64,000 bases of DNA, taken from IMG/VR virus record IMGVR_UViG_3300033696_000004, positions 36,031-100,030 of that record, one strand, 5' to 3'. The stretch comes from a virus (Duplodnaviria > Heunggongvirae > Uroviricota > Caudoviricetes). A model generated the notes under the pieces. The model did no database searches and was not told the origin of the DNA. It saw only the letters and a program-made list of their open reading frames with translations. Numbering within the stretch: the stretch's first letter is position 1; each line of letters begins with the position of its first letter. Position numbers and translations under genes: made by a program. Positions 556 to 42,459 of this stretch are shown piece after piece.

Positions 556-631
556 GGATCTTTAGCTCAGTGGTTAGAGCGTTCGCCTGTTAAGTGAAGG
601 GTCATAGGTTCAAATCCTATAAGATCCGCCA
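556..631 (+). tRNA. tRNA-Asn (GUU)
   Basis: Hand-folded cloverleaf: acceptor ggatctt/aagatcc, D arm gctc..gagc, anticodon stem ttcgc/gtgaa with loop ctGTTaa, T arm atagg-ttcaaat-cctat, CCA encoded. Confidence 0.7.
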
Positions 632-713
632 ATAACAATTTACAAATGATGATTAAAATGGTAGATACCATGCCTTCGGGTTCAGTATTCGTATTCCAAA
701 TGAGGAATATAGA

Positions 714-1175
714 ATGCGACAAAAGCATTTAACGGATGAACAAATCATCGAAGGGTTTAACTCAATGAGTAAACCAAAGTTCAAATCGAGATTAGCTGTT
801 TACTTGGGTATTTCGATAAATACTGTAGTAAGGAGATGCAAGACTCTTGATTTGAAGTTTGATAAAAATGATAACATTGCCAACTTAGTAGCACATAGAC
901 AGAAAGTTCAAATCCCTCTATCTGAGATACTAGAAGGTAAGCATCCAAGTTATCAAACGCTTAAACTGAAGAAAAGATTAATTTCCAGCAACATTTTAGT
1001 TTACGAATGTTCTGAGTGTGGTATAATCGATTGGAATGGAAATCCCATTGCATTGCAATTAGATCATATAGATGGAAATCCACATAATCATGTATTATCC
1101 AATTTGAGACTAATTTGTCCAAATTGCCATAGTCAGACTGATACGTATTGTGGAAGAAACAAACAATCTGGGTAG
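714..1175 (+). CDS. HNH homing endonuclease
   Basis: 153 aa. C-terminal HNH/Zn motif CSECG...LQLDHIDGNPHNHVLSNLRLICPNCH. Inserted between tRNA genes, and its stop codon overlaps the tRNA-Tyr 5' end. Confidence 0.8.
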   Translation: MRQKHLTDEQIIEGFNSMSKPKFKSRLAVYLGISINTVVRRCKTLDLKFDKNDNIANLVAHRQKVQIPLSEILEGKHPSYQTLKLKKRLISSNILVYECSECGIIDWNGNPIALQLDHIDGNPHNHVLSNLRLICPNCHSQTDTYCGRNKQSG

Positions 1176-1255
1176 TTGGGTGAGTGGTTAAAACCAACGG
1201 GCTGTAAACCCGTCGCCTTTGCGCTTCGCTAGTTCGAATCTAGCACTGCCCACCA
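1170..1255 (+). tRNA. tRNA-Tyr (GUA), type II with long variable arm
   Basis: Acceptor gggtagt/actgccc, 3-bp D stem, anticodon stem acggg/cccgt with loop ctGTAaa, 14-nt variable arm, T arm gctag-ttcgaat-ctagc, CCA encoded. Confidence 0.7.
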
Positions 1256-1360
1256 ATTTAGAGATTTAGCGGATTGTCACGTAAAGGTGTTTGGCTACTT
1301 CTCTTTGAATTATGGTTGCCTGACGGCTATAAAAAGATGACTTCGAAGTCTGTCCACAAT

Positions 1361-1435
1361 TTTCCCATAGATTAATGGTTAGATCACCTCCCTTTCAAGG
1401 AGGCGGTACGGGTTCGAATCCCGTTGGGAAAACCA
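1361..1435 (+). tRNA. tRNA-Glu (UUC)
   Basis: Acceptor tttccca/tgggaaa, anticodon stem cctcc/ggagg with loop ctTTCaa, T arm acggg-ttcgaat-cccgt, CCA encoded. Confidence 0.65.
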
Positions 1436-1493
1436 ATTTAATGTGAGAATTATATTATGAATTATTATCCATCAACCTCTATAAAGAGATTTT

Positions 1494-1997
1494 ATGATAG
1501 AAGAATTCAAAATAGCAACGAAAACAAATTCACGTGGTGAAACCCAAGAGTTTTTGGTCAATTGTGATGGTTCGATAGTTAAGAATCCATCGACTGGTAA
1601 AGTATTGACTCCAGATCCAAAAGGGAAGTATTACAAGTATCGTATAAAATCAATACGTGCTTTGCTCCATTTCTTGGTATATAATGCATTCGTAGATCCA
1701 TCTTATGACGGTAGTGATACAAATTTGAAAATTGATCATGACGATGGTGATGAATATAATAACCATTATTCGAATCTTAACGTTATTTCACACTCAAATA
1801 ATGTGAAAAAATGCAAGCGTAATCCACCAATATCCGAAAATGAACTTCGTGAAATTGCTATTGACCGTTACGTCAACAATTTATCCATAATGAAGATTAG
1901 TCGGAAGTATAATCGGTCGGATTCTACTATACAGAATCTGTTTAGTGGTCGTCGCAATAAAAAGTTTCAAGAAATAAAATTGGAATTTATCAAATAA
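1494..1997 (+). CDS. HNH-type (HNH_3-like) homing endonuclease
   Basis: 167 aa. Motif LKIDHDDGDEYNNHYSNLNVISHSNN is typical of phage HNH_3 endonucleases. Second endonuclease ORF embedded in the tRNA island. Confidence 0.65.
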   Translation: MIEEFKIATKTNSRGETQEFLVNCDGSIVKNPSTGKVLTPDPKGKYYKYRIKSIRALLHFLVYNAFVDPSYDGSDTNLKIDHDDGDEYNNHYSNLNVISHSNNVKKCKRNPPISENELREIAIDRYVNNLSIMKISRKYNRSDSTIQNLFSGRRNKKFQEIKLEFIK

Positions 1998-2172
1998 TTG
2001 TTTACTTTCTTCTAAAAGAGAGTATACTAAAAGAATACCAAATAGGTTCAGTTCAGCAATCATAAACAAAATCATCTGTGAAATGAATAGTGTAGGTTCG
2101 AATCCTGCTGCGCTTGGTATAGCGTATGGTGTAACTGGCAGCACATAGTTATGAACCTGACAAATTAACAAT

Positions 2173-2249
2173 ACATGCGTAGCTCAGTTGGTTAGAGCAG
2201 GTCACTTTTAATGATCTGGTCGGTGGTTCGAGTCCACCTGCATGTACCA
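2173..2249 (+). tRNA. tRNA-Lys (UUU)
   Basis: Acceptor acatgcg/tgcatgt, D arm gctc..gagc, anticodon stem ggtca/tgatc with loop ctTTTaa, T arm ggtgg-ttcgagt-ccacc, CCA encoded. Confidence 0.7.
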
Positions 2250-2477
2250 ATTTCTTAATTAATAAGCATTCGGTGTTTATTAATTAAGGTGTTGGAACTT
2301 ACTTCATCATGATAAGATCTTTGGACTATAACCGTTATTGGTTATAGTTTTCAAAAGAATTTTGATAGATAAAGGTAACCTAAGTTCCATTAAGAATGTG
2401 TCTAAAATGAGAAAGCAGTACGTTAAAGATCCTCGTGGTGGTGATCCGCTTAACTCGACAGACCTTAAACAATTTCT

Positions 2478-2552
2478 GGGGTATTAGTATAATGGTTATT
2501 ATAAGGCGTTGTCTGCGCCATGATAAGGGTTCGATTCCCTTATACCTCGCCA
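2478..2552 (+). tRNA. tRNA-Asp (GUC), tentative
   Basis: Acceptor ggggtat/atacctc, T arm aaggg-ttcgatt-ccctt, CCA encoded, anticodon loop ttGTCtg. D stem and anticodon stem are imperfect. Confidence 0.5.
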
Positions 2553-2560
2553 AATTCTAT

Positions 2561-2692
2561 GGGTGTAGCTTATTATCAAGTGCGTTCAATCTAGAAACGA
2601 ATGCATAAAGGTATAGATAGGTCAAGCACTTTAATGTTAGTCTTGCAAGTAATAGCATTAATTCGTGGGTTCGATTCCCACTACATCTACTC
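2561..2692 (+). ncRNA. ~130-nt tRNA-like element (degenerate or expanded tRNA, or stable small RNA)
   Basis: gggtgta at the 5' end pairs (with 2 G-U) to tacatct directly after a good T arm gtggg-ttcgatt-cccac. The interior is ~55 nt too long for a tRNA and has no canonical D arm. Confidence 0.3.
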
Positions 2693-2812
2693 AACTTTTC
2701 CAATTAGTGATCTTATGAGAGTATTAACTAGAAAGGCTGACATTCAGCAAAACCTACTAATTATTTGAATCTTAATCAAACCATAGAGTAAGTTCAGCCT
2801 GAACAATTTAAT

Positions 2813-2889
<77 letters not shown>

Positions 2890-2895
2890 ATTTAT

Positions 2896-2971
2896 AGTTT
2901 CATAACTCAGTTGGGAGAGTGCTTCCCTTACAAGGAAGAAGTCGCTGGTTCGAGTCCAGTTGGAACTACCA
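2896..2971 (+). tRNA. tRNA-Val (UAC)
   Basis: Acceptor agtttca/tggaact, D arm actc..gagt, anticodon stem cttcc/ggaag with loop ctTACaa, T arm gctgg-ttcgagt-ccagt, CCA encoded. Confidence 0.7.
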
Positions 2972-3079
2972 AACAATGTGGTAAAATCGTGATGAACTGA
3001 CTATAGCAAACCTAGGAACTGCTGTAGGTGAAACATCATAAAGGGGAGTTGTAAAGATACTCACCACCACACCAAACAA

Positions 3080-3178
3080 TGAAGTAGCGTGGATGCTATG
3101 GGTTCGATTCCCTACAATCTCTGGATGGGTGAGTAGCTATAGATGCTACAATAGAAAGTGGTTCGACTCCACTTGACT
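3080..3178 (+). ncRNA. tRNA-like degenerate element containing two T-loop-like motifs
   Basis: gaagtag at 3080 partially pairs with tgacttc after T arm agtgg-ttcgact-ccact. An internal second ggg-ttcgatt-ccc motif is present. Preceded by the repeated leader ccaaacaatgaag. Confidence 0.25.
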
Positions 3179-3190
3179 TCGACAAACAAT

Positions 3191-3321
3191 GAAGATGCTT
3201 ACATTCGTGTAAGGAAATGCAGAGAAATCGGTAGGAAATAATTGGTAGCCTCTCACATAATGCGAATTAGCGCAGGACTGTTATGCTACTATCCGAAGTG
3301 AGTTCAAGTCTCACCATCTTC
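3191..3321 (+). ncRNA. ~131-nt tRNA-like element (perfect 7-bp acceptor plus T arm, expanded interior)
   Basis: gaagatg (3191-3197) is perfectly complementary to catcttc, which directly follows T arm gtgag-ttcaagt-ctcac. The interior is ~55 nt longer than a tRNA. Preceded by ccaaacaatgaag like element 3080. Confidence 0.3.
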
Positions 3322-3333
3322 ACCTTTTACAAT

Positions 3334-3418
3334 GCATTCGTGGTGGAATAGGCAGACACGCTAGGTTTAGGTCCTAGTGGAGAAATCCGTGAGAGTTCAA
3401 GTCTCTCCGAATGTACCA
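3334..3418 (+). tRNA. tRNA-Leu (UAG), type II
   Basis: Acceptor gcattcg/cgaatgt, 3-bp D stem gtg/cac, anticodon stem ctagg/cctag with loop ttTAGgt, 13-nt variable arm, T arm gagag-ttcaagt-ctctc, CCA encoded. Confidence 0.7.
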
Positions 3419-3623: not shown

Positions 3624-4688
3624 ATGTTTTGGGATTCAATGCTATACATAATGAAAGTAACTGATGACTGTCCAATGCGTTGTGAGTATTGTACGGTTAA
3701 AGAAGAGTTCAAAGATAAAGAGATGGAAATCTCTACTATCGAAAATCTATTACGTAAGTCTAAGGGTATAGGCGAAATCCAGCTGACATTCTTGGGTGGT
3801 GAACCACTTATGTTGGGTGCTGAATGGTATCGTGAAGTATTTGCCCTAGCTGATCGTTACAGTCGTGAGATGAAATACAAAGTAACATACGAAATGTTCA
3901 CTAATGGTACATTCCTTAATGACGAACTTATGGACTTATTCGAAGAACATAAAGTTAAAATCTGGATGTCTTACGACGGTAAGGGTATCGGTGCTAAAGG
4001 TGGTAAACGCTCTCAGAAAATCCTACAGAAATACGGCTCTCGTTTGGGTGGAGTTAACGTTGTAGTACAAGACAAACATACCAGTTTGATTGATGTTTAC
4101 GAAGAATTACAAGGTTATGGTGTGCGTTACATGATGCATTATCTAAACCAGTACGATACTACTAATGTGGACTACTTCACAGATTTGATTCTAGAACTAT
4201 GCGATCATGTAGACAAGATTAAACGTCCTACCACTCGGTTTATGATGTATGACGACATGAAACGCCTTGCTAAATGGGACACAAATAAAACGCATTCATC
4301 TGCTACTGGTCGTGTTTATATTAATAACGACTTTGTGGTTCATACAGATGGTACTCTAAAAGGTGGTGTAGCTGCTTCTGACAATCCAGAATTTATTTAC
4401 GGTAACATCAACGAGATCAACCACATCATCGATGCTGTGTTCTCAGAGAATAACCAGAAACATAACCGTGATTACATAAAGAGTTTGGATCTTATCGGTG
4501 AGCATCAAGAAATCAATATGCTCACTCGTGGTGGTGGTTTCATCTGGAATAAACCAGACCAAGGAATACCGTTAGATAAGCCTAACATCCCTTACATTAA
4601 ACATTTCAAACGTGTCTTGGATCATGTTCGCTCAAAGAACACTGAACGTCCAGATGGTGTTAAACCAATGCAAACTCGCTGTTACTAG
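3624..4688 (+). CDS. radical SAM enzyme (function unknown)
   Basis: 354 aa. CPMRCEYC = CX3CX2C radical-SAM cluster motif near the N-terminus, and FLGGEPLM glycine-rich SAM motif. RBS aaaggaaaaatcATG. Early promoter upstream. Confidence 0.75.
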   Translation: MFWDSMLYIMKVTDDCPMRCEYCTVKEEFKDKEMEISTIENLLRKSKGIGEIQLTFLGGEPLMLGAEWYREVFALADRYSREMKYKVTYEMFTNGTFLNDELMDLFEEHKVKIWMSYDGKGIGAKGGKRSQKILQKYGSRLGGVNVVVQDKHTSLIDVYEELQGYGVRYMMHYLNQYDTTNVDYFTDLILELCDHVDKIKRPTTRFMMYDDMKRLAKWDTNKTHSSATGRVYINNDFVVHTDGTLKGGVAASDNPEFIYGNINEINHIIDAVFSENNQKHNRDYIKSLDLIGEHQEINMLTRGGGFIWNKPDQGIPLDKPNIPYIKHFKRVLDHVRSKNTERPDGVKPMQTRCY

Positions 4689-4695: not shown

Positions 4696-5682
4696 ATGAA
4701 AAAAGTAGATTTAATTGTTGACATGCAATATGGGTCAACTGGAAAAGGTCTGATTGCTGGATACCTAGCAGAAAGGCATGGTTACGATACAGTAATTAAT
4801 GCTAACATGCCAAATGCTGGTCATACTTACATTAACAAAGCTGGTCGTAAGTGGATTCATAAGGTATTACCTAATGGTATCGTATCACCTAACCTTAAAC
4901 GTGTTATGATTGGTGCTGGTGCTGTATTCAGTCCAATGCAACTGCGTAAAGAAATTGAAAACAGCAAAGACCTCCTAGAAGGTGTTCGTATTATGATTCA
5001 CCCTAATGCGGTTCCTCTTACCGACGAACACGTGACTAACGACCAAGACGTGAGTAAGCGCATTGGTGGAACTGGTCAAGGTTCTGGTGGGGCATTACAA
5101 GCTAAGGTTAATCGTACTGCATTAGTTGCTAAAGACTATCAAATGTGGTTTAATAATTACGTGGTTACACACGATGAATGGAACCAAGCACTGATTGATT
5201 CGGACAAGATTTTAGCAGAAGGTGCTCAAGGATTCTCGCTTGGTGTTTCTGAGCGTTTCTATCCTTATTGTACGTCACGTGATTGCACTCCTGCTCGTTT
5301 CTTAGCAGACATGAGTATTCCAGTCCAGATGTTAAATGATGTGATTGGTGTAGTGCGTACGTATCCTATTCGCACTGGTGGTAATTCAGGTGGATTCTAC
5401 TCTGACCAAGTTGAAACTAGTTGGGATGAACTCAACCTAGACCCAGAATTCACTACAGTAACCAAGAAAGAACGTCGTGTGTTTACTTTTTCAAAGAAAC
5501 AAATAGAAGATGCTGTTTTTGGTATCAGACCAACTAAAATCTTCTTAAACTTCTGTAACTACAATACGGATGAAGAAGTAGGCGAACTTGTTAGTTTTAT
5601 CAACTCAGTTGCAGGAAACTACGGTGGTCGTGTTCGTTACTTAGGTCACGGTGCAACTTCACGCCATATAGAGACACTTTAA
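4696..5682 (+). CDS. adenylosuccinate synthetase homolog (short PurA/PurZ-like)
   Basis: ~328 aa from the ATG at 4696 (RBS gaggttttATG). Aligns by eye to the PurA P-loop (QYGSTGKG vs QWGDEGKGK), NAGHT, IGGTGQGSGG (vs TTGRGIGP) and AEGAQG (vs EGAQG). It is ~100 aa shorter than cellular PurA, and the catalytic Asp-Glu of the P-loop is replaced by Ser-Thr. Confidence 0.75.
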   Translation: MKKVDLIVDMQYGSTGKGLIAGYLAERHGYDTVINANMPNAGHTYINKAGRKWIHKVLPNGIVSPNLKRVMIGAGAVFSPMQLRKEIENSKDLLEGVRIMIHPNAVPLTDEHVTNDQDVSKRIGGTGQGSGGALQAKVNRTALVAKDYQMWFNNYVVTHDEWNQALIDSDKILAEGAQGFSLGVSERFYPYCTSRDCTPARFLADMSIPVQMLNDVIGVVRTYPIRTGGNSGGFYSDQVETSWDELNLDPEFTTVTKKERRVFTFSKKQIEDAVFGIRPTKIFLNFCNYNTDEEVGELVSFINSVAGNYGGRVRYLGHGATSRHIETL

Positions 5683-5724: not shown

Positions 5725-6321
5725 ATGCTAGTATTTTTACCAACAGCATCAAAAGAAATGCAAGATAAAGCGTTTGAGTACGCAAATAAAATAATGTCAG
5801 ATCCAAAGCAATTAGAAGCATTCCCTGCTACTGCTCCATGTCATGCGTTGTTGGGTAATCCAGATGGAAGACCATCTACATACACAGAACTAAGAGAAAT
5901 GCAAGTACAAGAAGAAGTAGATAGTTTTTATGCTACATACGATTTCGCTAGTGTTGATTCTAATGGTAATGTCGTTGGATTGATGGGATATAATACATCA
6001 AATACCGATGGGGTTGTGCGTGGTCACGGACCTTGGTTTGAACGTTTAGAAACAACTGGATTTACATTCAAACGAGACATTCCAGCCATTTACAAAGAAA
6101 CATTAAACAATACTCATGAGACAATGGTTTCTATATTCCAAGGTGAGTACAATAAGAAGTACCTAACACAGACATATAGAGATAACGATAAACTGAATGG
6201 ATTTGACCGTAACGTAACTAATGGTTATGTGTTGAAATCGTCACCAGTTAATCGTGTATGCAAAACCATGATGGGTACACATGTTCTTACTCGTTCGGTT
6301 ATACTGAAAGGTAATTTATAA
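5725..6321 (+). CDS. hypothetical protein
   Basis: 198 aa, RBS aggagaaattcATG. Co-directional and tightly packed with the rSAM/PurA-like genes. No motif recognised. Confidence 0.5.
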   Translation: MLVFLPTASKEMQDKAFEYANKIMSDPKQLEAFPATAPCHALLGNPDGRPSTYTELREMQVQEEVDSFYATYDFASVDSNGNVVGLMGYNTSNTDGVVRGHGPWFERLETTGFTFKRDIPAIYKETLNNTHETMVSIFQGEYNKKYLTQTYRDNDKLNGFDRNVTNGYVLKSSPVNRVCKTMMGTHVLTRSVILKGNL

Positions 6322-6881
6322 TGATTTATGAAATGAAAAATTTGGTCGCAGTTGACCAAGAGAAAGTTAAAGAATACATGAGAAATTACATTGCAGTAAG
6401 TCCACGTGTTGCTTTAACCGTAATGGATGATCCATCAATGGTTGACTTATCACCATCTAATGAGTTATTCTATGATTATCCTAAGCTTTGTCAAGAAAGA
6501 GAACGCCTTAATAAAGACATTACTCACTTTGACTTAGTTAGTATGCAAGATGGGGAAGTGTTAGGTTTGTTCTATTTTACAATTACTGGTACTGAAGGTG
6601 GATCGTTTACCATATATAGAACAGAACGTGATAAGCCGTTTGCATTTGGAAAGGATGTACAACGTGCGTATGATTATATGCACCAACGTACTACTGATTT
6701 CACTGTTGTAGTGTATCTTGATGGTGATAATCAAATAGAAGCAGATAGAATAAATGGTAGGGGTATAGTACATCACTTAGGTAAAGTTTATACAATTTAC
6801 CGTGAGTACTATACGTTGAAGAAGATGGGGGAACGTATAGCACCTTTGCTTATTTTACAAGTCCAAGGTGCTATGACTTAA
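6321..6881 (+). CDS. hypothetical protein
   Basis: 186 aa. Start overlaps the upstream stop (TAATG). No motif recognised. Confidence 0.5.
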   Translation: MIYEMKNLVAVDQEKVKEYMRNYIAVSPRVALTVMDDPSMVDLSPSNELFYDYPKLCQERERLNKDITHFDLVSMQDGEVLGLFYFTITGTEGGSFTIYRTERDKPFAFGKDVQRAYDYMHQRTTDFTVVVYLDGDNQIEADRINGRGIVHHLGKVYTIYREYYTLKKMGERIAPLLILQVQGAMT

Positions 6882-8393
6882 TTACAATCCGTTTTTGATA
6901 ATGTAGCTATTAACTATTACAAGAAGTTCGGTTCCCATTACCAATTGTCTATGTTCCTCTGACTGGGGAACATGGATTAGCTCGTAGGTTTCACCAGTAT
7001 ACACACGAATCATGTCACCCAGTATCTCGATCTTGCTGTAATTGTCTACATTATTATGGGTTTCTTGCACCTCATATACAGTAGTTTTACTATTGATACG
7101 ACGGCTCCATACTTCGAGTTCTAATGTATCTTTAGATACATGATTGATTAGTTCTTTTGGTACAATTAAGTGTGCATATTCTTGTAGTTCAGGTGGAACA
7201 CTATACACAACTTCGTGACCCATGCTAGATTTAACTGCTATCGTATAGTCGTTGTATTTGACAACTTCAGCTGCACCATCTTGTCCATCTTGTGTGATGT
7301 TAGATCTGGTTCCACTAATAACACTATCATGTGCTCCAGTTGCACCACCACCACCTCCAGCGTAAGAAGAACCAGCACCAGCAGCACCGTTACCGTTTCC
7401 ACCACCACCGTTTCCACCTCTACCAGCAAGATTTCCATTGTAAGTGCCACCATTGCCACCACCGCCACCACCGCTAAGACTACCGTTTCCACCACCTTGT
7501 CCGTTACCGTTTCCATCGGCTGCACCAGTACCGCCAGCTCCACCAGAACCGTTTCCGCATCCTCCACCGCCACCGCCACCGCCAAGTTTGATTTCACCTT
7601 TCGTTACAGCGTATTGTCTAGCACCACCACCACCACCGCCACCACCACCGCCTTGTATGTTATATGGTGAATTAATAGACCACGAAGTTGAACTACCACG
7701 CTGTAATCCAATACCACCACCACCGCCAGCAGAGCCGTTGGATTGTACATTACCGCCACGTCCACCATTACCGCCACGTCCTTGGATACGACCTCTACAG
7801 TCAAGGAAAACACTTTCGGCTTTTCCGCCCATGTTGTGACCATTGAATGCAGGAGTACCAGTTGATGTACCATACACCCATACACCCGTGTTTATAGTAA
7901 CGTTAACCTTTCCGTAAGCACCAGCACCAGCAGGAGGGTTGACGTTGTTTCTTAATACGTAGTTTGTTGCATTGCTACCAATAGTAATGTATAATTCCCA
8001 TGACTTACCACGTAGGTCATTCATAGAGATAGCACCAGATGGTTTTCCTGCTAATGATCTAACTTGTGCATCATTAAGATTGATCGATTGTGATGCTGGT
8101 CTACGCAATTCTGTATTGACCTGAGACATAGAAATTGTACCAGAAGGAAGTGTTCTGATAGAGACTGAACCTTTAAAGTCTGGATCTGTTTCTTTTTCTG
8201 GTGTAACATTATGTAGTTCCACGTATTCTGTGATTAGTTTGCGACTAATCGAACGTCTTTCCATCGTAGGTTCAATTAAGAAACGATGTCTACCTTTAGG
8301 GTATGTCAATTCGTAATAATAGCAGTTGTGGATTGGATCATAGTAAAGACCTTCGTTCTCCTTCAACCACCTAAGTTTTCTTTGTACTAACAT
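6882..8393 (-). CDS. glycine-rich repeat protein (possible late structural or adhesin-like protein)
   Basis: 503 aa and the only long minus-strand ORF. The central ~200 aa are poly-Gly/GN/GS tracts (GGGGGGGGGGARQY..., GGGGGGGGCGNGSGG...) flanked by ordinary N- and C-terminal domains. Resembles the glycine-rich motifs of T-even gp38-type adhesins. A CATAAATA (near-late-promoter) box lies upstream on the minus strand. Confidence 0.6.
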   Translation of the reverse strand: MLVQRKLRWLKENEGLYYDPIHNCYYYELTYPKGRHRFLIEPTMERRSISRKLITEYVELHNVTPEKETDPDFKGSVSIRTLPSGTISMSQVNTELRRPASQSINLNDAQVRSLAGKPSGAISMNDLRGKSWELYITIGSNATNYVLRNNVNPPAGAGAYGKVNVTINTGVWVYGTSTGTPAFNGHNMGGKAESVFLDCRGRIQGRGGNGGRGGNVQSNGSAGGGGGIGLQRGSSTSWSINSPYNIQGGGGGGGGGGARQYAVTKGEIKLGGGGGGGGCGNGSGGAGGTGAADGNGNGQGGGNGSLSGGGGGGNGGTYNGNLAGRGGNGGGGNGNGAAGAGSSYAGGGGGATGAHDSVISGTRSNITQDGQDGAAEVVKYNDYTIAVKSSMGHEVVYSVPPELQEYAHLIVPKELINHVSKDTLELEVWSRRINSKTTVYEVQETHNNVDNYSKIEILGDMIRVYTGETYELIHVPQSEEHRQLVMGTELLVIVNSYIIKNGL

Positions 8394-8440
8394 GCGATTC
8401 TTCCATTTTTGGTTTGATTATAATTTTATTTATGAAAGTT

Positions 8441-8469
8441 GTTTACTTTGGTTGAAATTGTGTTATTAT
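8441..8469 (+). promoter_or_regulatory. T4-type early promoter (GTTTAC -35, 17 bp spacer, TATTAT -10)
   Basis: gtttac at 8441-8446 and tattat at 8464-8469. Directs transcription into tRNA-Cys. Confidence 0.5.
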
Positions 8470-8481
8470 GAATACATAGAA

Positions 8482-8556
8482 GCACTGTTGCCAGAATAGT
8501 TATGGGGCGAATTGCAAATTCGTTGGAAGTAGGTGCAAGTCCTACACAGTGCTCCA
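8482..8556 (+). tRNA. tRNA-Cys (GCA), tentative
   Basis: Acceptor gcactgt/acagtgc, 3-bp D stem, anticodon stem gcgaa/ttcgt with loop ttGCAaa, T arm gtagg-tgcaagt-cctac (atypical G at position 55), CCA encoded. Confidence 0.5.
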
Positions 8557-8732
8557 TTTTAACGAGACTAAATAATAATGACAGTTGAAGAATTACTTAA
8601 AGAAATTGGTAATAAAGTGTTTACTCCTTCTGAAATTGATGTTATAATCAAACTTATAGAAGAACAAGAGCCTAAGCAATGCTCTGAAACAGAATTGCTA
8701 AATAGAACATACAGTCTTTAGTGTTTAAAGGT

Positions 8733-8804
8733 GTGGGCTTCCTCTAGCTGGTTAAGAGCACCGATTGTGATTCGGTCAACACGGATTCGAATTCCGTAGT
8801 CCAC
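8733..8804 (+). tRNA. tRNA-His (GUG)
   Basis: Acceptor gtgggct/agtccac, D arm ctct..agag, anticodon stem accga/tcggt with loop ttGTGat, T arm acgga-ttcgaat-tccgt. No encoded CCA. Confidence 0.6.
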
Positions 8805-8995
8805 CCCTTTACATATTAAGGAAACAGAGTATGTTAGTGTAAACTATTTTAATTTAACAAAATCTAACATTGGATTTAAGATAAAAGAAATCCAAGAATT
8901 GATTAACAAAACAAACAATCTTGTAGTCAAGAAACGTCTTATCGTTGAACTGACTTCGCTATTAGCCATACAGGATTTGTTTAAGAAAGAATAAT

Positions 8996-9071
8996 GGGTC
9001 GGTAACTCAGTTGGTAGAGTGTCGGATTGAAAATCCGATGGTCACTGGTTCAAATCCAGTCCGTCCCACCA
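8996..9071 (+). tRNA. tRNA-Phe (GAA)
   Basis: Acceptor gggtcgg/ccgtccc (one T-T mismatch), D arm actc..gagt, anticodon stem tcgga/tccga with loop ttGAAaa, T arm actgg-ttcaaat-ccagt, CCA encoded. Confidence 0.65.
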
Positions 9072-9214
9072 TAATTTTGTACAGACATGAGACTCAAAAC
9101 ATAGGCTGCTTGTTACAGGCTTAAAGAATGATATCTAACGCCTATTGAGAGAACAGCCGTTGTGGGAACACGTTTTGCTCATGGAAACCCTCTACAACAA
9201 ATTACAGGAATCTT

Positions 9215-9475
9215 ATGAAGATTTATAAGCCTCAAAATGTTGAAATTAACAAAAATGGTATTAGCTTCTTAGGAGCATTGACGTTATTGTTCATTGCTTT
9301 GAAGCTGACTGGTCATATTGCGTGGTCGTGGTGGTGGGTATTATCCCCATTATGGATACCATTCGCTATTGTTTTATGTGGTTTTATTTTAGTTTTATGC
9401 GGTATAGCTGCCAAAGTAGTATATACTGAACATTTAAGAAAGAAAGCTAATAAAATAAAAAATAATTTAAAATAA
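9215..9475 (+). CDS. small membrane protein
   Basis: 86 aa. Two hydrophobic helices (LGALTLLFIALKL, WWWVLSPLWIPFAIVLCGFILVLCGIAA) and a basic C-terminus. Confidence 0.5.
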   Translation: MKIYKPQNVEINKNGISFLGALTLLFIALKLTGHIAWSWWWVLSPLWIPFAIVLCGFILVLCGIAAKVVYTEHLRKKANKIKNNLK

Positions 9476-9477
9476 TT

Positions 9478-9506
9478 GTTTACTTTACTAGTAAATGTGT
9501 TATTAT
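9478..9506 (+). promoter_or_regulatory. T4-type early promoter
   Basis: gtttac 9478-9483, 17 bp, tattat 9501-9506. The -10 runs into tataaata, so it may also act as a late promoter. Confidence 0.45.
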
Positions 9507-9844
9507 AAATACATAAGTTGATTGGACGTTAATAGATGTTCTAGCCTAAGCTCTTAGGTCACGTTGATAACGGAGTCGTTCATTCAATTTAGTAAAACTT
9601 AGCTTTGTGTTGATATGTCGTATAGGCAAATGCACAATGTTAATGGGAAATGTTTCAGCAAACCATTAAAAAAAATCAAACTTAAATACTATAATTAAAG
9701 GTTGGAACGGATTGGGCTTAGGCAGAATCTTAGTACGCACAAGTAAATGTGTTAAAATAATCTAAAGTCACTGACTATGACCTCTTAACCTTTACATTTC
9801 CGTCTAAGTCAAAACATAATCAAGAGGGTTAAAATCCTCTTTCT

Positions 9845-9919
9845 AGGGATATGGTGTAATTGGTAACACAACAGACTTTGATTCTGTCGTTTTAGGTTCG
9901 AGACCTGATATCCCTACCA
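9845..9919 (+). tRNA. tRNA-Gln (UUG)
   Basis: Acceptor agggata/tatccct, D arm gtgt..acac, anticodon stem acaga/tctgt with loop ctTTGat, T arm ttagg-ttcgaga-cctga, CCA encoded. Confidence 0.65.
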
Positions 9920-10048
9920 ATTCTATAAGGTATTTCATGTTAGTTGAAACATACGTTAGTAAATGTGGTAACTACATAATCGAAGTGGAAACTGGACAAC
10001 CTATCCCTGATGGTTACATCAAAGGGAAAGACGAATAAATTGTATTGG

Positions 10049-10123
10049 AGTGGATTAGCTCAGGGGTAGAGCACAGTGCTGATAACGCTGGTGTCACTGG
10101 TTCAAATCCAGTATTCACTACCA
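10049..10123 (+). tRNA. tRNA-Ile (GAU)
   Basis: Acceptor agtggat/attcact, D arm gctc..gagc, anticodon stem cagtg/cgctg with loop ctGATaa, T arm actgg-ttcaaat-ccagt, CCA encoded. Confidence 0.65.
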
Positions 10124-10887
10124 ATACCATTTGTTTAGATGCATTTGTTATTATTCTCTATGTAAGACGTTAGTTTGACAAACTAACAACCTTCCGCATA
10201 AGTTGGTTTTAGAGAATGTTGTTTATTTCACGCAATGAGGATGATATTGCATCAAGGTGATTAACGTTGTAAATATCCTAGGGCGGTGTCTTTATCATCA
10301 AGGACATATTGAGGACATTTGTTGTTTGAATGACACTGGAACCGAAAGTGCTAACAGTGGTCTGCTACTCATTTGAAATTAAACTAAAACTCTGACTTGC
10401 CCCAGAAATGGTTGAGTCTCTTTCCATCTAAAAAATGGTTGTTGTCCGTGACACATAAAAGAGTTTAATTACAGGATCTTTTACCTTACTACAAGGGTTT
10501 ATGCATAAAGGCGCAGATGCATTAAATAATCCAATACAATGCTTCGGTAATGTTGGTATTCTAAGTCTGTAGAATTGACTTAGACGGGTATGTGGTCGGA
10601 GACAGACGATATGTAATTCCGATACTTGACTAGCAGGGTAAAACTAGAGGTCTCAATCCTAGACCAAATTAGAAAGCCGAATGGATAACTAATTCAAAAT
10701 CATTATGAGATAAGTCTCGTTGTGTAATGTTTCGTGGTGGTGAGTATTCCTCTTCGTAGAATGAATAAATACTTAGTAGGTGAGAGGGTTCTTACTATAA
10801 AATGATACCCGAAAAGTGCTGGCATTATCGTTCCCTATGCACTCTAAATTATCAAATGGAACCACGCTATCCGAAGGGATAGCATCT

Positions 10888-10962
10888 GCTTCTTTCATAT
10901 AATGGCTATTATGCCTCACTTGTAATGAGGTTATGGGAGTTCGAATCTCTCAAGGAGCACCA
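10888..10962 (+). tRNA. tRNA-Thr (UGU)
   Basis: Acceptor gcttctt/aaggagc, anticodon stem cctca/tgagg with loop ctTGTaa, T arm gggag-ttcgaat-ctctc, CCA encoded. Confidence 0.6.
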
Positions 10963-10968
10963 AATTCT

Positions 10969-11058
10969 GGAAGCGTGGTAGAGCACGGTTTATTGCAACT
11001 GACTTGAAATCAGTCGATCCGAAAGGATCCGTAGGTTCGAATCCTACCGCTTCCGCCA
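10969..11058 (+). tRNA. tRNA-Ser (UGA), type II
   Basis: Acceptor ggaagcg/cgcttcc, 3-bp D stem, anticodon stem actga/tcagt with loop ctTGAaa, long variable arm cgatccgaaaggatcc, T arm gtagg-ttcgaat-cctac, CCA encoded. Architecture is close to T4 tRNA-Ser. Confidence 0.7.
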
Positions 11059-11065
11059 AATTCAT

Positions 11066-11139
11066 GCGTCACTGGTATAAGGGTTGTGCCTTAGCCTTCC
11101 AAGCTAATGATAGGAGTTCGAATCTCCTGTGACGCTCCA
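11066..11139 (+). tRNA. tRNA-Gly (UCC)
   Basis: Acceptor gcgtcac/gtgacgc, anticodon stem ttagc/gctaa with loop ctTCCaa, T arm aggag-ttcgaat-ctcct, CCA encoded. D arm is non-canonical. Confidence 0.6.
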
Positions 11140-11161
11140 ATTCACTTAACGGACAAACACT

Positions 11162-11389
11162 ATGACTATTACTATCGTAGATGTCATGGTTGCACATCAC
11201 CTTGGTGGTGCTAAAGAACTAGCACATTTCAACAACCAAGAAGATGCATATCGTTTAGTTTCTCGCTTAGACGAAGAAGCATTTGCATTTGCTGATGTAA
11301 TTTATCATGTGAAAACTGATGACACTAGCGACCATTTACAAACAAGATTCACACTATTAGAGAATCTACAACATGAATTACAACCTTAA
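11162..11389 (+). CDS. hypothetical protein
   Basis: 75 aa ORF directly after the tRNA block. Confidence 0.4.
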   Translation: MTITIVDVMVAHHLGGAKELAHFNNQEDAYRLVSRLDEEAFAFADVIYHVKTDDTSDHLQTRFTLLENLQHELQP

Positions 11390-11645
11390 TCACATTATTA
11401 TCTACTACAAAGATGAAGACCCGTACTACGAAGACGAGTTAACATTCCGTGGAAAATCTCCAGATGATGCACTAGGTTTTATAAAAACGATAGACGAAAG
11501 TCAATTCATAGGTTTAGTCATTGAATTGGAAGAAAATCGTGTCATTCATTCAGGTTCTATTGATCCATTGGATTACGAAATCGATGAAGTAGATGATTAT
11601 AAAAAAGCTATTGATGTATTGGATAAATTATCCGATGAATACTAA
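11373..11645 (+). CDS. hypothetical protein
   Basis: 90 aa acidic ORF overlapping its upstream neighbour. Confidence 0.4.
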   Translation: MNYNLNHIIIYYKDEDPYYEDELTFRGKSPDDALGFIKTIDESQFIGLVIELEENRVIHSGSIDPLDYEIDEVDDYKKAIDVLDKLSDEY

Positions 11646-12054
11646 ACAAATTGGAATAATAACAGAGACAAAGTTTGTATTCGAGTGTTCGAAGTTAGGT
11701 CTGACTGTAAGTCAACCTATTGGTGACAATGCACCATACGACTTCATTGTTGATTTCAATGGAATCCTGAAACGTATACAATGTAAAAATTTACGAAAAT
11801 CTGGATTGAAATACATAGCAGAAACAAATAAAAAAACTGGACATAAGCGTGATACGAAAGTATTATACAAAGGTCTATGTGATTATTTCTTCTTATATAA
11901 CATAGAAGATGATAAGTTTGCATTCATAGATGTTGACAAATGTTCAGTTTCGGTTACACTATGGTCTAGTAAAGATAAATCCGAATCTGATTCGAGAATC
12001 CGATTTATAGAAGATTATAATGAAATAAAGAATAATTGCGAGTTGGAGAAGTAG
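11593..12054 (+). CDS. possible PD-(D/E)xK-fold nuclease-like protein
   Basis: 153 aa (start uncertain, 11593 or 11635). Spacing of D...E.K-like residues: PYDFIVDFNG...KRIQCK. The last 18 nt overlap tRNA-Met. Confidence 0.35.
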   Translation: MIIKKLLMYWINYPMNTKQIGIITETKFVFECSKLGLTVSQPIGDNAPYDFIVDFNGILKRIQCKNLRKSGLKYIAETNKKTGHKRDTKVLYKGLCDYFFLYNIEDDKFAFIDVDKCSVSVTLWSSKDKSESDSRIRFIEDYNEIKNNCELEK

Positions 12055-12112
12055 CTATCTCGTTGGGTTCATATCCCAAAGGTCACTGGTGCAATTCCAG
12101 TACTCGCTACCA
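12037..12112 (+). tRNA. tRNA-Met (CAU) with initiator-like features
   Basis: Acceptor tgcgagt/actcgct with a 1:72 T-T mismatch, D arm gaga..tctc, anticodon stem ttggg/cccaa (three consecutive G-C pairs) with loop ttCATat, T arm actgg-tgcaatt-ccagt, CCA encoded. Confidence 0.6.
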
Positions 12113-12118
12113 AATTAT

Positions 12119-12191
12119 AGGGGGTTAGTTCAGTTGGTAGAACGTTGGATTCCAAATCCAAATGCCGAGGGTTCAAGTCCTTCATCCCCTG
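12119..12191 (+). tRNA. tRNA-Trp (CCA)
   Basis: Acceptor agggggt/atcccct, D arm gttc..gaac, anticodon stem ttgga/tccaa with loop ttCCAaa, T arm gaggg-ttcaagt-ccttc. No encoded CCA. Confidence 0.65.
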
Positions 12192-12197
12192 CATTCC

Positions 12198-13995: not shown

Positions 13996-14634
13996 ATGTT
14001 TGTAAAATCTATTACCAGAAATGAATGTGAACCATTTATTCTAGGTATTCATTATGCTAAACGTTGGTGTTCTATTAGTTACGCATTTGGATTATATCAA
14101 CCTATAGAGAATGACTTTATGGGAAGAGATGAATTAATTGGTATCGTAACCTATGGTACTCCACCAAGTTCTACATTAAAATCTGGTATTGCTGGCGATG
14201 AACATAAAGAAAAGGTTCTAGAACTTAACAGGTTATGTTTGAAATACAATCGCAAGAATGAAGCTAGTTTCTTGGTTGGAAATAGCCTTAAACTATTACC
14301 TAAGAATCGAATTGTAGTAAGCTTTGCTGACATAGAGCAAGGTCACAATGGTTGTGTATATCGTGCAACTAACTTTACTTACCATGGTTTATCTGCGAAA
14401 CGTAAAGACTGGAAGGTAAAGGGTCTAGAACACTTACATGGTATTACTATTGCGGATCAGTTTCGTGGCGTAGAGAACCGTGGTAAGGCTATTCGTGAAC
14501 ATTATGGTGATGACTTCTACATGCAAGAACGTCCACGTAAACATCGTTACATCTTTGTTACTGGTGATAAGCGTCAGAAGAAGATTTTAAAATCCGCTAT
14601 CAAATATCCAATAGAAAAATTTATCAAAGAATAG
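13996..14634 (+). CDS. putative Mom-like DNA-modification protein (acyltransferase fold), tentative
   Basis: 212 aa. Motif pattern GIHYAKRW...LIGIVTYGTP...ELNRLCL...VVSFADIEQGHNGCVYRATNFTYHG matches my memory of the phage Mu Mom family signature (HHY..., SYAD..GH.G.IY.A.N). This is recalled from memory, not a database hit. Confidence 0.4.
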   Translation: MFVKSITRNECEPFILGIHYAKRWCSISYAFGLYQPIENDFMGRDELIGIVTYGTPPSSTLKSGIAGDEHKEKVLELNRLCLKYNRKNEASFLVGNSLKLLPKNRIVVSFADIEQGHNGCVYRATNFTYHGLSAKRKDWKVKGLEHLHGITIADQFRGVENRGKAIREHYGDDFYMQERPRKHRYIFVTGDKRQKKILKSAIKYPIEKFIKE

Positions 14635-26835: not shown

Positions 26836-27948
26836 ATGAAAATCAATGAAATGAACAATCGCCAAATTAAAGAATCTGGTCTACACACTAAAGCCGTAGT
26901 AATCGGTCGGTTTGAACCAGTAATGCACCGTGGTCATGTATCCATGATCCATAAAGCTTTAGACGTAGCAAAAGAAGTGTTTATCGTAATCGGATCTGCT
27001 AGTGCTTATCCTGATGTGAAAAACCCAATTTCTGTTGATTTGCGTCAACGTTGTATCTGGAACATCTTGCGTGATGAATTCACGGTGGAACAATGTTCTC
27101 GTATCAAAACTCGTTATGTTAATGACTACAAATACAATGACGAGAAGTGGAAAACTGAAATTCGTATGCAAGTCGGTGAACGTCGTTGGGATAACATCGC
27201 AATGATTGGATTCGAGAAAGACCAAGATTCATACTGGTTAAATGAGTTTGGTTGGACAATGATTCCAGTTGAGCCTACTATGGTAAGCTGGTTGGGTTCG
27301 AGTGTTCCAATGAGTTCTACGTTTATCCGTGATCATTGGCTACGTACTGGTGAAATCTTACTTAAAGAAATGCTACCTCAAGCATGTGTTGATTTCCTAG
27401 AGAAGTTCACGTGGATTAATGGTAAATTCAGTAAAGAGTTCGACCGTCTAAACGAAGAACGTTTGAAGTGGGACAAAGAAATCAAGAAGTTTGATGATTA
27501 CCCATACATGGAATCACTACATGGTGTATGTGCTGACTCTGTAGTATTATGCAATAATCATGTTTTGTTAATCGAACGCAAGTTTGCACCAGGAAAAGGT
27601 GCATGGGCTTTACCAGGCGGTCACAAGAATAGTGATGAAACATTCCGTTATGCTGCATTGCGTGAACTGGAAGAAGAAGTTGGTCTGAAGGTATCGCCTA
27701 AAGTAATTCGTGGTTCTATCAAAGATTCTCAATTGTTTGATGACCCTAAGCGTACTGCTGTATTCTGTAAACCTACAGTTGCTCAGTTTATTGTATTGCA
27801 ACCCGACCACGATGGTAAATTACCACGTGTTCAGGGTGCTGATGATGCTAAACGTGCATTCTGGGTTCCACTTCATGAAATTAAAGAAAACCCACAGAAG
27901 CTATTTGATGACCATTCATGCATCATTAGTTACTTCACTGGTGTTTGA
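26836..27948 (+). CDS. natV: bifunctional NMN adenylyltransferase / Nudix ADP-ribose pyrophosphatase (NatV/NadM-Nudix type)
   Basis: 370 aa. N-terminal nucleotidyltransferase motif GRFEPVMHRGH (HxGH-like) and C-terminal Nudix box GGHKNSDETFRYAALRELEEEVGL. Confidence 0.75.
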   Translation: MKINEMNNRQIKESGLHTKAVVIGRFEPVMHRGHVSMIHKALDVAKEVFIVIGSASAYPDVKNPISVDLRQRCIWNILRDEFTVEQCSRIKTRYVNDYKYNDEKWKTEIRMQVGERRWDNIAMIGFEKDQDSYWLNEFGWTMIPVEPTMVSWLGSSVPMSSTFIRDHWLRTGEILLKEMLPQACVDFLEKFTWINGKFSKEFDRLNEERLKWDKEIKKFDDYPYMESLHGVCADSVVLCNNHVLLIERKFAPGKGAWALPGGHKNSDETFRYAALRELEEEVGLKVSPKVIRGSIKDSQLFDDPKRTAVFCKPTVAQFIVLQPDHDGKLPRVQGADDAKRAFWVPLHEIKENPQKLFDDHSCIISYFTGV

Positions 27949-35772: not shown

Positions 35773-35873
35773 GTATTGGTAAGTTGTTAGCGTTAATGAT
35801 TATTGCTGGTGTTAGTGGGTTTGCAATGGGATGGTTCATTGCTTCATTTTTAGATGTTACGGGTGCATTGTAA
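35769..35873 (+). CDS. 35-aa hydrophobic peptide (single transmembrane helix)
   Basis: MSIGKLLALMIIAGVSGFAMGWFIASFLDVTGAL. It is coupled ATGA to the upstream ORF and TAATG to the sirtuin gene. Not in the supplied ORF track (too short). Confidence 0.35.
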   Translation: MSIGKLLALMIIAGVSGFAMGWFIASFLDVTGAL

Positions 35874-36577: not shown

Positions 36578-36631
36578 ATTGTTTATGTTACCAGATTTTA
36601 CTGTATAATAAATACTATTCCAAACGGAGGT

Positions 36632-41916: not shown

Positions 41917-42459
41917 TTGATGAAAAAGAATAATGACTATGTAGATAATAAACTGTTGCTAATAGCTATTGCTGAGTGGCAACAACGTCGTTTAACGACT
42001 CTTGATTTACCACTAACCGATGAAATAGGACGTGATGTAATGTTAATCTCCTATAACCTATCAAAACGGTGGAATTTTTCTGGCTATACAGATGATTGGA
42101 AAGAACAGATGATTGGTGATGGAATCGAAGCAGCTTTGAAAGCTGTTAAAAATTTCGATGCTATCCATTTCTCTAACCCACACGCATATCTTACTACCGT
42201 ATGTTTCCGTGCATTCCAAAATCGTATAAAGAAAGAACGTCAAGAGAGTGTAGGAAAATACAAGTACTTTGTGGAAGAAGTATACGATTTTACTAACGAC
42301 GAGATTTCGGCTAATGTTGATGTCGATTTCTACCAAGATATGGTTAATAAAATCGCTGAGTATGACGAAAGCAAGAAAAAACAATGCAAAGTCGAACCCG
42401 ATTGTGACGAAGAACTTCCGTTACTCGGCTTAGGTAAGATTTATGGAAATGAATTTTAA
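41917..42459 (+). CDS. 55: late-transcription sigma factor gp55
   Basis: 180 aa. Matches T4 gp55 as recalled: NNKLLL.AI..W..., LSKRWNFSGYT..WKEQMIGDGIEA..K....FD.....NPHAY.T..CF.AF.NRIKKER. Confidence 0.85.
   Translation: MMKKNNDYVDNKLLLIAIAEWQQRRLTTLDLPLTDEIGRDVMLISYNLSKRWNFSGYTDDWKEQMIGDGIEAALKAVKNFDAIHFSNPHAYLTTVCFRAFQNRIKKERQESVGKYKYFVEEVYDFTNDEISANVDVDFYQDMVNKIAEYDESKKKQCKVEPDCDEELPLLGLGKIYGNEF

Follow-up and report, generated by a model that had tools for sequence, protein, structure and literature searches.

A gp38-homologous module nested in an unrelated two-domain protein, a candidate accessory adhesin of a T4-like phage

Introduction

Adhesins of the gp38 type are described as free, monomeric tip proteins that are encoded after gene 37, and they are the main handle on the host range of T-even-like phages, both for understanding it and for re-engineering it. 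The gp38 fold combines a β-helix with a polyglycine-II sandwich and has both hypervariable segments and motifs rich in glycine (PMC12032242). In the proteins of the T2/T6/S16/PP01-type Straboviridae (PF05268; 6F45 chain D and 9V85), which are ~250 aa long, the conserved glycine motifs are split by hypervariable loops. A second group of relatives, uncharacterised and metagenomic, consists of stand-alone proteins of ~300 aa (phrog_2056, annotated as 'tail fiber protein; host specificity', and phrog_10745) that carry a double 'SGxISMS' motif at the very N terminus and end in 'NITWxATGTRxGxIS'; typical members sit in tail modules, at most one gene from a Peptidase_S74 fibre gene. A further likeness is Pam3 gp24, which has a glycine-rich stem (39% Gly) and a variable distal tip for which receptor binding has been proposed, but which forms a trimeric fibre and has a TNF-like domain instead of the β-helix.

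Here we describe a glycine-rich protein of a T4-like phage, encoded in a 64-kb stretch of DNA (the window), that carries a module homologous to gp38 between two domains of another protein. We found no description of such an adhesin architecture and genome position.

Results

The minus-strand ORF at positions 6882..8393 is a complete coding sequence of 503 aa with an ATG start and a TAA stop, and its ortholog P0002 (504 aa, ~50% identical in the alignable parts), which comes from a separate ENA assembly, shares its architecture and its neighbours. As a sequence-only reading of the window had stated, it is the sole substantial gene (at least 100 aa and not a shadow ORF) on the opposite strand in the 64 kb, since all other minus-strand ORFs of at least 100 aa overlap longer plus-strand ORFs or sit within the 6882..8393 gene. 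The JGI gene call, P0001, comprises 460 aa and begins at M44 of the 503-aa product. Because residues 1–43 are kept in P0002 and also in the proteins P0121 and P0122 described below, the upstream ATG is taken as the true start, and the present analysis corrects the truncated call. A Shine-Dalgarno-like GGAAG (8400..8404, minus strand) lies 6 nt before this ATG, with AGGAG at the same place in the related loci L008 and L009.

Glycine accounts for 100 of the 503 residues and for 44% of residues 216–375, with G runs of 10, 8, 6, 5, 5 and 4. The description of a poly-glycine product thus held, but the glycine-rich stretch, put at ~200 aa by the same reading, measures about 155 aa (residues 205–358). 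The tract is encoded by mixed GGT, GGA and GGC codons and keeps its frame throughout; together with the 50%-identical ortholog in an independent assembly, this argues that the tract is no assembly artefact, a possibility that had been raised. The further suggestion of a hotspot for slippage gains little from the DNA, in which the tandem repeats are short and imperfect (the longest triplet array has 9.3 copies with a 92% match); 14 indel columns relative to the ortholog in this region speak in its favour.

The 503-aa protein has no match to any Pfam family at E ≤ 1, and neither has P0002; an NCBIfam search with the whole protein and a megablast of positions 6000–9500 against phages were likewise empty, and phmmer against the PDB returned linker and colicin noise but no direct match to gp38. 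Because both the Pfam hit and the direct phmmer match are missing, the link to gp38 needs intermediates or a profile. Such intermediates are provided by the nearest of the ~300-aa relatives (E as low as 3e-32), of which P0003 (47 bits), P0015 (33.9), P0004 (27.4) and P0006 (27.0) pass the 25-bit gathering cut-off of the Pfam GP38 family PF05268 over nearly the whole model. In addition, a profile of 76 sequences with the query first (alignment A1) matches the gp38 chains 9v85_A of PP01 (4e-11) and 6f45_D of S16 (1e-7), in alignments that run from the β-helix through the glycine motifs to the C-terminal strand and retain specific non-Gly landmarks of gp38. When the AF2 model of the protein was compared with the PDB by Foldseek, the top match was the PP01 gp38 receptor-binding domain (E 1.4e-8, probability 1.0, TMt 0.55), and chains of this domain were the only matches at E ≤ 0.001; Pam3 gp24 was not among them. 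Thus, the resemblance to gp38 adhesins that the sequence-only reading had pointed out is true homology of the glycine-rich domain.

In the AF2 model 254 residues have pLDDT values above 90 and the confident block spans approximately residues 79–360. This block opens with the double motif 'SGxISMSxVNxEL / SGxISMxDLRGKS' (residues 79–131; 8001..8159, minus strand), which was identified by its tblastn and PHROG matches and has pLDDT values of 92–94. It is followed by the β-helix of the gp38-like receptor-binding module (residues 132–204; 7782..8000, minus strand), assigned from the A1 alignment and modelled as β-strands with pLDDT values of 90–97. The glycine motifs and short variable loops come next (residues 205–358; 7320..7781, minus strand); composition, profile and model point to a polyglycine-II sandwich here, and the region has pLDDT values mostly above 90 without regular DSSP secondary structure. 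A fold of β-helix plus three-layer polyglycine-II sandwich is therefore predicted for the module. It gives way to a downstream junction (residues 359–375; 7269..7319, minus strand), defined by alignments A1 and A3 and with pLDDT values below 50 for residues 360–375. Both alignments place the end of the module after '...SNIT', and the final 'WxATGTRxGxIS' strand of the family is absent or replaced.

Several features set the query apart from the T2/T6/S16/PP01 proteins. The N-terminal gp37-attachment domain of the T2/S16 type is absent, as the A1 alignment to 6f45_D begins at chain residue 77, and its position is taken by the unrelated double motif; the last strand is missing as well. Glycine runs are more numerous and longer in the query, and its loops are very short. 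Its module is nested in another protein, whereas gp38 is free, and its gene lies on the opposite strand in a tRNA and nucleotide-metabolism region rather than downstream of gene 37. Comparison with P0002 shows identities of about 50% in all domains. In the glycine region it is the G/G columns that are conserved, and the non-Gly columns of residues 205–358 are only 15% identical, versus 43–53% in the other domains. This comparison shows the gp38 signature of conserved motifs with hypervariable loops between them.

Residues 79 to ~372 align at 40–50% identity with the ~300-aa family, from its first residues almost to its end. Relative to this family the module is internal, C-terminally truncated and displaced. 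The PHROG and tblastn matches of the query are confined to the double-motif part (phrog_26817, 1.4e-10), with partial matches to phrog_2056 (5.9e-5) and phrog_10745 (2.3e-7), and tblastn of the whole protein against phages gave a match limited to residues 79–139. Besides the ~300-aa gp38-like family, the double motif opens PhiImVa-1 ORF_94, an ORF overlapping the end of a 1326-aa tail-fibre gene, and HTVC008M gp065, which is encoded after a gp7-like baseplate gene. The double motif is a portable N-terminal module of small proteins that are often encoded after tail-fibre or baseplate genes.

The module is flanked by two domains, which we refer to as the carrier. The carrier N domain (residues 1–70; 8184..8393, minus strand) is an orphan fold of β-sheet and helix, and the carrier C domain (residues 376–503; 6885..7268, minus strand) is an orphan α/β domain; neither has a significant fold match. 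The carrier N domain alone gave no homolog in a word-indexed search. An exhaustive HMMER search with residues 370–503 recovered proteins of 211 and 201 aa with contiguous N and C domains. The relatives of the C domain in that search were P0001, P0002, P0121 and P0122, plus the repeat protein P0123 (E 2.9e-07, in five stretches), which we judged spurious. Residues 1–70 and 376–503 align colinearly with the stand-alone ~200-aa proteins P0121 and P0122 (alignment A2), with 33 invariant columns. The N domain corresponds to their N-terminal halves, with block-mean pLDDT values of 77–91 in the AF2 model of P0121, and the upstream junction (residues 71–78; 8160..8183, minus strand), which has low pLDDT, corresponds to their inter-domain linker. 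In A3, a combined alignment prepared for structure prediction, the C domains of P0121 and P0122 came out in the wrong place, and it was set aside for this purpose. A profile search with alignment A2 found only P0121 and P0122, and carrier searches gave nothing in IMG/VR and only the L008 contig again in JGI metagenomes.

On these alignments, a ~290-aa adhesin module sits in the linker between the two carrier domains. This nesting of a gp38-like module in an unrelated two-domain protein accounts for the double size of the product. The observation that the protein is about twice the size of gp38 was correct; the product is not a bigger gp38, as the flanks match a two-domain protein that stands alone in relatives. 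No direct repeats flank the module junctions. With respect to insertion or deletion, two comparisons give contrary groupings: by carrier-domain identity the two module-bearing genes belong together (48% versus 29–36%), whereas the neighbouring 199-aa ORF places the locus L001 with the module-free L008 (69% versus 56–57%).

Long forms with extra N and C domains around the double motif and gp38-like module also occur in other T4-like metagenomic phages (P0005 and P0045, 466 and 473 aa), where the gene likewise lies opposite to the surrounding early genes. Their flanks have no detectable homology to the carrier of the query by hhalign (probability 0.1), and their gene differs in being translationally coupled to a radical-SAM (rSAM) gene.

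Upstream of the gene, 33 nt before the ATG, lies the late-promoter-like box CATAAATA (8427..8434, minus strand), a 7/8 match to the T4-type TATAAATA and the near-late-promoter box of the sequence-only reading. A NATAAATA box is found 23–33 nt upstream of the ATG at all four orthologous loci (the window, L001, L008 and L009), the boxes of the loci other than the window being CATAAATA, TATAAATA+CATAAATA and AATAAATA. ATAAATA is rarer than expected in the window (7 sites versus 23.5), and three of the seven sites lie 17–33 nt upstream of gene starts (P = 2e-4); A/TATAAATA lies 17 and 24 nt upstream of two other window genes. The phage encodes a gp55-like late sigma factor (41917–42459; phrog_234, 5e-50) and a gp45 clamp (46408–47085) in the window. 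Late transcription from the putative box is predicted from these features.

Its neighbours include tRNA genes and two orphan ORFs, together with a PurZ-like gene and the rSAM gene (3624–4688). The orphan ORFs are paralogous (198 and 186 aa; 5725..6881, plus strand) and converge on the gene, with back-to-back stops (TAATTA) and no intergenic base. This convergent arrangement is repeated in L001 and L008, and weak homologs flank P0005 and P0045, whose genes converge on them; the two ORFs are conserved neighbours, for which we claim no functional link. In L008, where P0122 occupies the syntenic locus, the convergent arrangement is kept with rSAM (79% identical), PurZ-like (74%) and 199-aa ORF (56%) neighbours. 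A scan of ~40 window ORFs, mainly of about 150 aa or more, revealed no tail or head gene, in keeping with the earlier placement of the gene far from the tail fibres.

Discussion

The gp38 homology, the conserved box, the gp55 gene and the isolation from tail genes make a displaced or accessory adhesin the best of the options that had been offered from sequence alone. In particular, we consider it probable that the product is an accessory receptor-binding protein, nested in its architecture and expressed late. Transcription would be initiated by the gp55 late sigma factor at the CATAAATA box, antisense to the early and tRNA region in which the gene lies, and the protein would fold in the cytoplasm. 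The carrier, which occurs by itself as a ~200-aa protein at the same locus in a related phage, holds a nearly complete ~290-aa adhesin module in its linker. The glycine motifs may form a rigid core, from which the short, fast-evolving inter-motif loops could touch a surface receptor of the host, and attachment to the virion may be via the double motif or via the carrier domains. With such short loops between the motifs, it is not obvious which surface would bind the receptor. Counting against this explanation, the protein itself matches gp38 neither in Pfam nor by direct phmmer, the module is without the T2/S16-type gp37-attachment domain and the last strand of its family, the carrier domains are orphans and so lend no support to arrival on the virion, the gene adjoins no tail gene, and the promoter box is a 7/8 match.

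The location of the gene outside any structural module, the orphan carrier domains with no structural-protein signature and the missing T2/S16 gp37-attachment domain would also suit a soluble late protein outside the virion that uses the gp38-type module to bind a component of the host envelope, for example to mask receptors on lysing cells and debris or to exclude superinfecting phage. We regard this as unlikely, although it is the most plausible of the alternatives weighed here: no hydrophobic N-terminal segment is visible by reading the sequence, so a protein that stays in the cytoplasm would reach surface receptors only once the cell has lysed; elsewhere the double motif stands at the head of proteins whose genes adjoin fibre or baseplate genes; and virion components are typically under late-promoter control. 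Chaperones are common among the small proteins whose genes follow fibre genes, and Pam3 gp25, for example, is absent from virions (PMC9608196); given also that the carrier N and C domains have no assigned function, the protein could conceivably be a tail-fibre assembly factor like T4 gp38 or Tfa instead of a receptor-binding protein, but we think this improbable.

The genomic neighbourhood raises another possibility, namely that the neighbouring radical-SAM maturase-like enzyme has the glycine-rich protein as its substrate or partner and modifies it post-translationally. A gene for an rSAM protein with a peptide-maturase-like core is always close by, and in L003 and L010 an rSAM homolog (47% identical), preceded by TATAAATA, is co-oriented with P0005/P0045 and overlaps at ATGCTAA. 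In the window and in L008, however, the rSAM gene lies on the opposite strand at a distance of two to three genes, and its family matches are far below cut-offs and cover the core only. Because L008 keeps the rSAM gene beside a carrier gene that has no glycine module, and because Vibrio phage D479 has the rSAM and orphan-ORF cassette with no gp38-like gene beside it, we downgraded this idea to very improbable. We give almost no credence to a colicin-like or other glycine-rich toxin, or to the ORF or repeat tract being an assembly artefact. The weak phmmer matches to the glycine-rich regions of colicins E9 and E3 (E 0.04–1.6) and to designed GGGGS linkers are all that favours a toxin, which had been among the earlier suggestions; the colicin matches are composition-driven and of high bias, and none reaches a receptor-binding or cytotoxic domain of the toxins. 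Moreover, the specific non-Gly landmarks of gp38 are conserved, and ORF, architecture and neighbours recur in the independent assembly.

Returning to the accessory receptor-binding protein, its route to the particle might be the carrier itself. [quoted passage not shown] If this were true, a small T4-like clade would have a second adhesin on the particle that is independent of the fibres, and from its place in the early/tRNA region the gene could be acquired, lost (L008 and L009 being examples) or swapped (compare the P0005-type flanks) while the tail-fibre operon is left undisturbed.

For annotation, our analysis defines two portable parts, the double SGxISMS motif and the orphan carrier domains. 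The gp38 receptor-binding fold apparently tolerates insertion in the linker of an unrelated protein, and a gene bearing such a module is kept, with a putative late promoter, at a conserved locus that is distant from the fibre genes. If the protein is on the virion, it would represent an additional, modular route of host recognition for T4-like phages and a natural precedent for polyglycine-II binding domains displayed on carrier proteins.

The gene and its setting

The minus-strand interval 6882-8393 is a genuine open reading frame of 503 codons, with an ATG start preceded 6 nt upstream by GGAAG and a TAA stop. Any further minus-strand ORF that reaches 100 aa either lies inside this gene or overlaps a longer plus-strand ORF, so no other substantial gene in the 64 kb runs in this direction. 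The isolated glycine-rich gene described in the sequence-only reading is thus borne out, with 100 glycines in the 503-aa product. Glycine makes up 44% of residues 216-375, in runs of 10, 8, 6, 5, 5 and 4 residues that use mixed GGT, GGA and GGC codons, and the DNA arrays of the tract are short and imperfect (longest triplet array, 9.3 copies with 92% match). The JGI gene call (P0001, 460 aa) is identical to the query and begins at M44, so that 43 residues of a conserved domain are missing (window 8262-8393, minus strand). The architecture and its neighbours were found again in L001, an orthologous locus from an independent ENA assembly, which rules out an assembly artefact and indicates purifying selection across all parts of the gene.

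The source is an uncultured T4-like phage, with 55% identity between its DNA polymerase and that of Cronobacter phage S13. Elsewhere the window carries genes of replication, recombination and nucleotide metabolism, for UvsX, gp41, primase, the clamp and clamp-associated proteins, endonuclease VII and topoisomerase, together with aerobic and anaerobic ribonucleotide reductases, TK, dNK and NAD-salvage enzymes; among about 40 window ORFs scanned (mainly ~150 aa or more) no head or tail genes were found. A plus-strand NAD-salvage/NAD-use set comprises an NMNAT/Nudix fusion, a nicotinamide phosphoribosyltransferase and a Sir2-like protein (26836-27948, 33929-35365 and 35831-36577), a set resembling that of KVP40-like Vibrio phages. 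A 328-aa adenylosuccinate-synthetase-like protein (4696-5682, plus strand) matches NCBIfam PurZ NF038379 (336 bits against a cut-off of 300) and phrog_1211 (6e-89), which suggests that the phage may make 2-aminoadenine (Z) DNA; neither DatZ nor MazZ was recognised among the window ORFs scanned. Besides the PurZ-like gene, the phage has genes for a Mom-like DNA modification protein (phrog_1384, 5e-48; 13996-14634, plus) and a DNA methyltransferase (phrog_56; 58914-59750, plus), and may therefore combine several DNA-modification systems.

Two plus-strand tRNA blocks (556-3418 and 8482-12192; 18 tRNA genes in total) flank the gene, the first with two HNH endonuclease ORFs between its tRNAs (714-1175 and 1494-1997). 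On one side a tRNA-Cys gene (8482-8556) diverges from it; on the other it converges with a 186-aa orphan ORF, the two stops standing back-to-back in TAATTA (6879-6884) with no terminator and no intergenic base. The same TAATTA occurs in L001 (3507-3512), and in L008, the equivalent locus of a related phage, the convergent genes abut at 2325/2326, as judged from coordinates only. This arrangement, kept in three phages, implies that early and late transcripts would read through antisense to each other at the convergent stops.

The middle of the protein is homologous to gp38

Matches among the 5.8 billion proteins searched fell into three classes: P0001, a lone 504-aa ortholog (P0002) about 50% identical where alignable, and ~260 proteins, mostly of 280-330 aa, that bear precomputed GP38 (PF05268) matches. 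The query itself has no Pfam match; four of its ~300-aa relatives (P0003, P0004, P0006 and P0015) score above the GP38 gathering threshold across nearly the entire model. Profile A1, built from 76 family sequences of which the query is the first, matches the solved gp38 structures of PP01 (9v85_A, 4e-11) and S16 (6f45_D, 1e-7), and the alignments contain the non-glycine landmarks 'GRGGNG', 'RINNxGxIAGGGGGGGG' and 'GAAVxGxxxxW'. An AlphaFold2 model built from A1 has pLDDT above 90 at 254 residues, with a high-confidence block at ~79-360, and at E<=0.001 Foldseek matched it in the PDB to PP01 gp38 receptor-binding-domain chains only (E 1.4e-8, probability 1.0). The resemblance to gp38 adhesins first noticed from the glycine repeats therefore reflects true homology of the receptor-binding part.

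The gp38 monomer has three parts: a domain at the N terminus that attaches to gp37, a beta-helix, and a three-layer polyglycine-II sandwich made of glycine-rich motifs, whose intervening hypervariable loops contact the receptor (PMC12032242). Between the query and P0002, identity is 50% in the carrier N domain and 57% in the double motif (both described below), 49% in the beta-helix and 50% in the carrier C domain, and falls to 15% in the 88 non-glycine columns of the glycine region, which also holds 14 indel columns. This divergence is the pattern of conserved motifs and hypervariable loops that defines receptor-contacting gp38 domains.

The module is nested in a two-domain carrier

When residues 370-503 were compared with 1.84 billion representatives in an exhaustive HMMER search, the only proteins recovered were P0001, P0002, P0121 (211 aa), P0122 (201 aa) and P0123. 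The last is a repeat protein matched over five stretches (E 2.9e-07), which we judged spurious. In P0121 and P0122 the query's N domain directly abuts its C domain, and query residues 1-78 plus 368-503 align colinearly with both, with 33 invariant columns. P0122 is encoded at L008, where the radical-SAM gene (79% identical to that of the window), the PurZ-like gene (74%) and a 199-aa ORF (56%) are shared and the 201-aa gene converges on the 199-aa ORF with no intergenic base. Because the two domains are contiguous and colinear in these short proteins, one of them syntenic, the 503-aa protein is a two-domain carrier whose inter-domain linker holds an adhesin module of ~290 aa (aa 79-~372); this explains its double size. 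Only the last strand of the family, 'WxATGTRxGxIS', is missing from the module. The carrier belongs to no PHROG, Pfam or NCBIfam family, no further homologs of it were found, and no repeats flank the module junctions. As to whether the module was gained by insertion or lost from the short forms by deletion, the signals conflict: carrier-domain identities cluster the two module-bearing genes together, whereas the neighbouring ORF places L001 beside L008, which has no module.

A duplicated motif, SGTISMSQVNTEL...SGAISMNDLRGKS, heads the module (residues 79-131). Its counterpart in phrog_26817 is the opening ~50 positions, and tblastn matches no other part of the query to cultured phages. It also heads the ~300-aa gp38-like proteins, typically encoded in tail modules adjoining Peptidase_S74 fibre genes or one gene after; a 173-aa protein of the N4-like Vibrio phage PhiImVa-1, encoded by a gene that overlaps a 1326-aa tail-fibre gene at the latter's end; a 177-aa protein in KVP40-like Vibrio phages; and HTVC008M gp065, a different glycine-rich protein encoded directly after a gp7-like baseplate gene. 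The T2/S16-type attachment domain is absent from the query, whose profile alignment to 6f45_D begins at residue 77 of that chain. We infer a docking role for the double motif: it may be a portable module of distal fibre or baseplate accessories and would then stand in for this attachment domain. Other family architectures include P0104 (787 aa), with apparently three tandem gp38-like modules behind one double motif as read from its sequence, and P0109 (538 aa), in which a LamG-type domain (PF13385) separates the double motif from the gp38-like module.

Promoter-like boxes and expression

A near-late-promoter box had been noted upstream of the gene, and a NATAAATA box indeed lies 23-33 nt before the ATG in all four orthologous loci. 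In the window it reads CATAAATA (8434..8427, 33 nt upstream of the ATG), as it does in L001; L008 has TATAAATAgCATAAATA, with its CATAAATA copy 29 nt upstream of the ATG, and L009 has AATAAATA. Among the window's genes are those for a gp55-like late sigma factor (phrog_234, 5e-50) and the gp45 clamp. ATAAATA is three-fold depleted in the window (7 copies against 23.5 expected), and three of the seven copies lie 17-33 nt before start codons in the correct orientation (binomial P = 2e-4): those of the present gene, of the endonuclease VII gene (36632; box at 36607-36614, plus, 17 nt upstream) and of a phrog_2086 gene (54825; box at 54793-54800, plus, 24 nt upstream). Taken together, the conserved boxes, the sigma factor with gp45 and the placement of ATAAATA make late transcription of the gene plausible. 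A perfect TATAAATA at 9504-9511 (plus) lies inside the tRNA block with no ORF after it.

A radical-SAM neighbour, the probable function and its rivals

Other T4-like metagenomic phages encode P0005 (466 aa) and P0045 (473 aa), in which extra N and C domains enclose the double motif and a gp38-like module; these outer domains have no detectable relation to the query's carrier. Both genes are oriented against the early genes around them and converge on ORFs weakly homologous to the orphan pair beside the query gene. They also overlap (ATGCTAA) an upstream radical-SAM gene, itself preceded by a TATAAATA box and 47% identical to that of the window (3624-4688, plus). The window enzyme has a peptide-maturase/anSME-like core, with matches far below all family cut-offs. 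It is accompanied by an orphan ORF of ~190 aa or by two paralogous ones (5725-6321 and 6321-6881, plus) in a cassette conserved in several T4-like phages (the window, L003, L010 and L008) and in Vibrio phage D479 (OZ195776.1, 156.6-159.5 kb); some copies have two radical-SAM paralogs.

This gene overlap raised the idea that the 503-aa protein is a substrate of the enzyme, which we consider very improbable: in the window and L008 the radical-SAM gene occupies the opposite strand, L008 keeps it beside a module-free carrier, and in D479 it occurs with an orphan ORF without any gp38-like gene.

We favour, as the probable reading, a late-expressed accessory receptor-binding protein in which a gp38-type polyglycine-II adhesin module is nested in an orphan carrier. 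A binding protein outside the virion is a considerably weaker candidate and a fibre-assembly factor weaker still, while a toxin or an artefact is scarcely credible.

In its central domain the protein would function as gp38 adhesins do, but it departs from the gp38 family in Pfam score, attachment domain, gene position and free-standing architecture. The fold and the likely role are already known; new and testable are the nesting of the module, a locus that is conserved though displaced, and the portable motif with its putative docking role.
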